From the NCBI RefSeq assembly GCF_011045215.1, contig NZ_CP049201.1: a DNA stretch of 64,000 bases. One strand, written 5' to 3'. Shown piece after piece: positions 8,457-9,011 of the stretch (position 1 is the first letter of the stretch; every line of letters begins with the position of its first letter). A program made the position numbers and the translations under genes. This stretch comes from Escherichia coli. GTDB lineage: Bacteria; Pseudomonadota; Gammaproteobacteria; Enterobacterales; Enterobacteriaceae. The notes beneath the pieces were generated by a model. It was not told the DNA's origin, did no database searches, and saw only the letters and a list, made by a program, of their open reading frames with translations.

Positions 8457-8581
8457 AATTTTTGCTGGTCACGTAAGCGCCGGAATCCACTTGCGGCGGC
8501 GTGATTTTGACGCTAAATTGAACGTCTTGCTGATAATTTCAGCACTTGAGATAAAAACTCAAAAAAAATTTTTTAGGGGGG

Positions 8582-8609
8582 TTGCAGAGGGAAAGATTTC
8601 TCGTATAAT
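8582..8609 (+). promoter_or_regulatory. Sigma70 promoter for the tRNA-Gly gene (-35 TTGCAG at 8582-8587, -10 TATAAT at 8604-8609)
   Basis: Consensus -10 and near-consensus -35 with 16-nt spacer, A/T-rich UP-like tract upstream (8561-8580) and GC-rich discriminator GCGCCTCCC downstream, as typical of stringently controlled stable-RNA promoters. Confidence 0.7.
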
Positions 8610-8666
8610 GCGCCTCCCGTAACGACGCAGAAATGCGAAAATTACGAAAGCAAAATTAAGTAGTAC

Positions 8667-8742
8667 GCGGGAATAGCTCAGTTGGTAGAGCACGACCTTG
8701 CCAAGGTCGGGGTCGCGAGTTCGAGTCTCGTTTCCCGCTCCA
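8667..8742 (+). tRNA. glyV: tRNA-Gly (anticodon GCC)
   Basis: 76-nt sequence GCGGGAATAGCTCAGTTGGTAGAGC...TTCGAGTCTCGTTTCCCGCTCCA with acceptor stem, D-loop, anticodon loop TTGCCAA (GCC), T-loop GTTCGAGTC and encoded CCA; a single copy only. Confidence 0.95.
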
Positions 8743-8749
8743 AATTCTT

Positions 8750-9011
8750 CTCTCAATAAAATATCCACAGCGACGCGATGCGTTATTGCTGGTTTTTGTT
8801 GTCTCTGACAAACTCTTGTAAACAGAGTTATCCACAGCCTCAGGCTGTAATCTTAATTTCAAAGAAACTTCGCACGGTGAATAGTATTTTTTTAACCTAT
8901 TGATAGGTAAGTTAAAAATTAAGATTCCGTTTTGTCGAGTCGATCACTTGACGATTTTATTCGTCTTGAATTGCAATGCGTTTTTATTTTTATTCACAAG
9001 CTGTGGATGAA
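8750..9011. promoter_or_regulatory. datA: datA-like DnaA-titration locus: DnaA-box cluster with a putative IHF site
   Basis: DnaA-box 9-mers at 8761-8769 (ATATCCACA, 8/9), 8828-8836 (TTATCCACA, 9/9), 8990-8998 (TTATTCACA, fits TTATNCACA) and 9002-9010 (TGTGGATGA, complement form, 8/9); IHF-consensus match TAACCTATTGATA at 8893-8905 with flanking A/T tract; position between the tRNA-Gly gene and queG matches where I remember datA. Confidence 0.7.

Follow-up and report, generated by a model that had tools for sequence, protein, structure and literature searches.

The window, by which we mean the whole 64-kb stretch of Escherichia coli DNA that was analysed, carries exactly one tRNA gene according to ARAGORN, a tRNA-Gly with the anticodon GCC. 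The same 76 nt match the Rfam tRNA model RF00005 (69.1 bits, E = 3.5e-14), which bears out the description in the first-pass annotation of a single 76-nt tRNA-Gly(GCC) gene at this place. The gene is identical over its full length to glyV, glyX, glyY and glyW of strain MG1655; glyW is unlinked, and its flanks differ from those of the glyV-X-Y copies. The setting is confirmed by the neighbouring genes. The oligoribonuclease gene orn lies upstream on the same strand, with 210 nt between its stop codon and the tRNA gene, and queG, which encodes epoxyqueuosine reductase, lies downstream on the opposite strand (Table 1). The promoter, the single tRNA gene and the cluster of DnaA boxes that the annotation had listed in this interval were all found.

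Table 1. Features of the orn–queG interval, with the segments of strain MG1655 used for comparison (window coordinates unless stated otherwise)
Feature	Position	Strand	Remarks
orn (oligoribonuclease), upstream neighbour	7911–8456	+	ATG at 7911, stop at 8456; aligns to MG1655 orn
A/T-rich tract followed by a G run	8553–8581	+	5′ of the -35; putatively UP-element-like, read from the sequence
PglyV-X-Y core	8582–8609	+	-35 TTGCAG at 8582–8587, 16-nt spacer, -10 TATAAT at 8604–8609
Missing 223 bp (nominal position)	8666/8667		Units of tRNA + 36-nt spacer and tRNA + 35-nt spacer
tRNA-Gly(GCC) gene	8667–8742	+	76 nt; ARAGORN, Rfam and alignment
DnaA box ATATCCACA (datA box 1)	8761–8769	+	Overlaps the start of the terminator
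TglyV-X-Y, tRNA operon terminator/attenuator	8765–8801	+	Hairpin 8765–8792, T-rich run 8793–8801; as in MG1655
Consensus DnaA box TTATCCACA	8828–8836	+	Probably datA box 2, from its position
IHF-consensus motif	8893–8905	-	TATCAATAGGTTA fits WATCAANNNNTTR; presumed datA IBS, read from the sequence
DnaA box TTATTCACA	8990–8998	+	Motif match
DnaA box TCATCCACA	9002–9010	-	Motif match
queG (epoxyqueuosine reductase), downstream neighbour	9012–10151	-	Translation of 379 aa; exact-protein matches in syntenic loci
Inter-tRNA spacer 1, AAATTTGAAAAGTGCTGCAAAGCACAGACCACCCAA			Absent from the window
Inter-tRNA spacer 2, AAATTTGAAAGTGCTGTAAGGCACAGACCACCCAA			Absent from the window; differs in sequence from spacer 1
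MG1655 leuQPV	L036:780-1102		Tandem tRNA-Leu(CAG) array leuQ-leuP-leuV

The promoter that we assign to the tRNA operon, PglyV-X-Y, has a perfect -10 hexamer followed by a GC-rich discriminator, GCGCCTCCC. A generic sigma-70 promoter scan of the window did not call it, because its -35 hexamer agrees at only three of six positions. The assignment is based on the identity of the core to the characterized MG1655 promoter and not on the scan: in the alignment the -35, the spacer, the -10 and the leader of about 50 nt are the same as in MG1655, and three substitutions fall in the A/T tract just 5′ of the -35. Experiments have established PglyV-X-Y as the dominant promoter here in MG1655 (PMC10950094). 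The RNA hairpin of the terminator, TglyV-X-Y, folds with an energy of -14.3 kcal/mol (z = -2.5), and published work places this terminator over DnaA box 1 of datA (PMC10950094).

The first DnaA box starts 19 nt past the end of the tRNA gene. Four DnaA boxes with at most one mismatch to TTATCCACA lie within 250 bp, against a background of 0.28 per kb at the same threshold in the whole window. The datA locus has been described as lying directly 3′ of the glyV-X-Y operon (PMC5742627; PMC10950094), with one IBS between boxes 2 and 3 (PMC5742627). The cluster of DnaA boxes with its IHF motif is the datA locus, for which DnaA-ATP hydrolysis is the predicted function here. At position 8907, 2 nt past the IHF-consensus motif, the window has G, versus A in MG1655 and in strain OkiPb01695.

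In MG1655, glyV, glyX and glyY (b4163–b4165) stand in tandem at the same position, with inter-tRNA spacers of 36 and 35 nt; the first-pass annotation had given this arrangement correctly, and the reference is not itself single-copy. A three-way alignment of the window, MG1655 and the two-copy strain OkiPb01695 shows that the window corresponds to MG1655 minus exactly 223 bp (112 + 111), which are two units of tRNA plus spacer, and that OkiPb01695 lacks exactly one unit. The flanks of the gap are near-identical to MG1655, with scattered substitutions only, and the distance from the orn stop codon to the queG stop codon is 555 bp in the window versus 778 bp in MG1655. The gap takes out whole units, both its endpoints lie in identical repeats and one repeat is left intact. 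Because all tRNA copies are identical, the crossover maps to an interval and not to a point, and could have taken place anywhere in the 76-nt tRNA or in the first 5 nt 3′ of it. A search of 8300–9100 for a second copy, a spacer or a remnant of a repeat found none; MG1655 shows a three-copy family with 111-nt units. Every sequence feature of the glyV-X-Y/datA locus for which we tested is present except the three tandem copies. The locus in the window is the E. coli orn–glyV-X-Y–datA–queG region, with a single gene in place of the three-gene tRNA-Gly(GCC) array.

The frequency of this arrangement was determined in 5,426 complete E. coli genomes from RefSeq. The single-copy junction, a 156-nt leader–tRNA–trailer query matched in one piece, is present in 14 of them (0.26%), and the single-copy gly allele was already present in public genomes. 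These 14 genomes have two tRNA matches each, versus four in typical genomes; the lower Gly-GCC gene dosage that the first-pass annotation had expected follows directly from these counts. A spacer-centred query matched 5,409 genomes (10,731 matches in total, at most four per genome), and array-spanning queries were covered to at least 80% in 122 genomes, which have one- and two-copy-like arrangements. As estimated from match totals and not from genome-by-genome counts, about 2% of the genomes have two copies, about 97% have three and about 0.3% have four or more. According to an earlier comparative paper, every E. coli that it examined has either three or four copies in this array (PMC4539685). 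Among GTDB species representatives, the exact single-copy junction had no matches. Both spacer types persist across two-copy strains, and the two-copy variants turn up repeatedly, in groups of related genomes.

Some further variants came to light in these searches. Seventeen genomes lack any inter-tRNA spacer match, compared with the 14 that have the single-copy junction, which leaves about three with other arrangements. A single genome in the set of 5,426, labelled E. coli like the rest, gave no match to the orn–glyV–queG, 23-kb core or leuQPV queries, and may be mislabelled or highly aberrant. A 121-bp insert lies between spacer 1 and the next tRNA-Gly in GCA_052649385.1 (L023:2285-2406), which has three tRNAs, and in OkiPb01701 (NZ_AP042598.1; L037:647-803), which has two. 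We take this insert to resemble an ERIC/IRU repeat (core ...GAGCTTACAAAAGTAAGTGACTAAGGTGAG...). At least ten OkiPb017xx genomes were listed with a partial match like that of OkiPb01701, and eight share the match length in the array-spanning search.

Among the complete genomes, the closest to the window is 99.4% identical over 23 kb. Close relatives were retrieved by exact-protein look-ups with MscM, QueG, Nnr and AmiB, and the nearest of them stand at about 0.3–0.4 SNP per kb from the window (0.26–0.44 differences per kb). Three tRNA-Gly copies are present in GCA_910665095.1 (L007/L016; 3 differences per 11.5 kb and 4 per 9 kb) and in GCA_016672445.1 (L017; 4 differences per 9 kb), and two copies, with spacer 1 kept, in GCA_016674245.1 (L024; 3 differences per 9.5 kb). 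The three-copy arrays of the relatives have both distinct spacers, as in K-12. Because such near-identical relatives have three or two copies, the single-copy state is, judged from these comparisons, derived and very recent in the window lineage. The first-pass annotation had called copy loss by recombination between the repeats plausible, and both the three-copy state of about 97% of genomes and the three- and two-copy close relatives support a loss over a gain in K-12. The opposite reading, in which the window lineage kept an ancestral single copy and duplication elsewhere produced the three, is extremely improbable. It is contradicted by the species-wide distribution, with three copies in about 97% of E. 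coli across all lineages, and by the relatives at 0.3–0.4 SNP per kb that have three copies with the two spacers of K-12; we found no support for it and reject it.

The window also has a private T at position 12206 (amiB codon 20), where all close relatives have G. In the gene-position index, its AmiB protein sequence has one other occurrence, in the Logan short-read contig SRR11014969_53. This contig is 100% identical to window positions 8667–18486 (9,820 bp) and starts at base 1 of the tRNA gene, and SRR11014969 is probably the same isolate or clone as the window. The contig end was considered as a source for copy number and is uninformative in that respect: because glyW is identical over 76 nt and has different flanks, a branch is expected there whatever the number of copies. 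The exact end point of the contig does not fit a strict unitig model.

We infer that the array was contracted from three genes to one in the cell, and lean with modest confidence towards this as the best explanation of the locus. The 76-bp perfect direct repeats, set in units of 111–112 bp, would pair out of register, through either RecA-dependent unequal sister-chromatid exchange or RecA-independent replication slippage, and 223 bp would be lost in one step (glyV × glyY) or in two (three to two to one copies). Promoter, leader, one tRNA, terminator and datA would be kept. As these elements are intact, the operon should still be transcribed and processed normally, and would give one tRNA per transcript instead of three. 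The number of genomic tRNA-Gly(GCC) genes would fall from four to two, provided that glyW is present. Out-of-register pairing of repeats is expected to leave one repeat behind and to remove whole units, as is seen here. In direct-repeat deletion assays in E. coli, deletions between tandem repeats of roughly 100 bp occur at high rates, and the routes of tandem-repeat deletion in this species comprise RecA-independent slippage or sister-strand exchange and RecA-dependent unequal crossing-over. The recurrence of two-copy variants, the survival of both spacer types and the 121-bp insert point to real, heritable variation at the glyV-X-Y array.

A real contraction has to be weighed against a collapse during assembly, in which an assembler or polisher would have reduced the 335-bp array with its identical 76-bp cores to the shortest path, leader–tRNA–trailer, in a strain whose true number of copies is three (or two). 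The first-pass annotation had itself raised this caveat, and we regard such a collapse as quite possible, at somewhat below an even chance. It would yield a sequence identical to that of a real deletion, and the single-copy complete genomes cluster by submitter. TUM strains make up six of the 14 and represent four or more unrelated lineages, which differ at up to 30 positions per kb (3%). The accession numbers of MC1061 and OV2, two K-12 laboratory strains unrelated to each other, are adjacent, and so are those of three records whose size resembles that of K-12, isolate FELIX_MS78 among them. This clustering points either to certain pipelines as the source of the single-copy state or to deletions that arose in stock cultures. 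Moreover, copy number varies between the assemblies of near-identical strains (3, 3, 2 and 1), and within the sets searched the window lineage is represented by drafts and one short-read run (SRR11014969) only, so that the source assembly may itself be a short-read draft. Short-read contigs often stop at the array, and contigs that end in or just past a tRNA-Gly copy (L009:1-85, the starts of loci L010–L012, L020:5410-5495 and L025:1-76) come from SKESA-type NCBI drafts, an ENA metagenome scaffold and Logan contigs; draft assemblies routinely break at the glyV-X-Y array. However, the failure that is seen in practice is a break in the contig and not a collapse. Because the two spacers differ, assemblers that use large k-mers resolve the array, and three copies are present in 15 of the 17 intact loci fetched, most of which are from draft assemblies. 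O104:H4 2011C-3493 has one copy and 2009EL-2050, whose flanking proteins are identical, has three, which repeats the pattern seen between the window and its relatives, and the generally high rate of real deletions between tandem repeats of about 100 bp likewise argues against an artefact. As an internal control for collapse, the window was searched for further tandem repeats of similar period; there are none, and its alignments to the relatives are otherwise gapless.

A further reading overlaps with that of a real deletion and refines it: the contraction would have been selected and not merely tolerated, with a benefit from less tRNA redundancy during slow growth in nutrient-poor niches or long storage, from altered read-through to datA, or from both. 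A number of the genomes with one copy belong to laboratory or collection stocks, and read-through from PglyV-X-Y regulates IHF binding at datA (PMC10950094), whose distance from the promoter is 223 bp shorter in the window. We nevertheless give selection little credence. Apart from near-identical pairs and sets, the rare allele is scattered on terminal branches and is not fixed in larger clades, and this scatter and rarity fit a deleterious or neutral mutation that recurs. When the tRNA genes were replaced by kan, the cell-cycle oscillation of datA read-through stayed intact, and removal of the terminator hardly altered the timing of initiation (PMC10950094). An effect of the contraction on datA is unlikely, because these changes had so little effect; by analogy, neither the distance from promoter to datA nor the tRNA content seems critical for datA. 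Still less credence goes to the fuller proposal that the contraction is real and adaptive, and that, by halving the tRNA-Gly(GCC) gene dosage and moving the strong tRNA promoter 223 bp towards datA, it retunes translation capacity together with the transcription-dependent release of IHF from datA, and so changes how growth rate is coupled to replication initiation in a niche where growth is slow.

If the deletion in the cell is real, the strain would have half the usual gene dosage of the tRNA for the major glycine codons, GGC and GGU. A lower supply of tRNA-Gly3 would be expected, with slower growth and a measurable cost in rich medium, whereas in poor medium the effect should be neutral or a slight benefit. 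In MG1655, deletions of tRNA gene copies, including ΔglyVXY, lower growth and elongation rate in rich medium and are neutral or often beneficial in poor media, and the remaining gene copies give no compensation (PMC9981150). By analogy, retention of two genes out of four should produce a milder version of the ΔglyVXY phenotype.

The rarity of the single-copy allele and its scatter on terminal branches would fit either a recurrent mutation that is checked by selection for tRNA-Gly3 dosage or sporadic artefacts. Repeats of this structure ought to be lost easily, and the low frequency of the allele hints at selection that keeps the array at three copies. In annotation and in pangenome studies, single-copy calls at the glyV-X-Y array should not be trusted without reads, because copy number differs between near-identical assemblies and the calls cluster by submitter. 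What can be used from this analysis is the confirmed observation, its frequency across the species and this caution about copy number at the array.

Compared with glyV-glyX-glyY and datA of MG1655, the locus in the window is alike in position, promoter core, leader, tRNA, terminator, DnaA boxes and IHF motif. It differs in having one tRNA gene and not three, in the loss of both spacers, in a primary transcript that is 223 nt shorter and in a promoter that is 223 bp nearer to datA. The closest counterparts are the single-copy alleles of the 14 complete genomes (O104:H4 2011C-3493, HS13-1, MC1061, OV2 and six TUM strains among them), in which the leader–tRNA–trailer junction is 99.4–100% identical over 156 nt but the genetic backgrounds are other than that of the window. 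The two-copy and insert-bearing variants (Xuzhou21, OkiPb01695, L021 and L024; OkiPb01701 and L023), of which L024 is from the lineage of the window, share with the window a change in the number of units at the same array, whereas they keep one spacer, of type 1 or type 2, and thus two or more genes. Plasmid and chromosomal assays of direct-repeat deletion in E. coli give products of the kind seen at the window locus. The leuQ-leuP-leuV array offers a parallel at another locus and with another tRNA: there too a tandem array has gone from three tRNA genes to one with the flanks intact, but about 30 times more frequently, with a single-copy leuQPV, detected by an artificial junction query, in 424 of the 5,426 complete E. 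coli genomes. Among the matches listed, single-copy leuQPV occurs in sets of near-identical strains (the Ec-050 series and the AVS isolates). The contraction of tandem tRNA arrays is an ordinary polymorphism, and what the window shows is either a rare but ordinary variant due to repeat contraction or a collapse in assembly, and no new kind of element.
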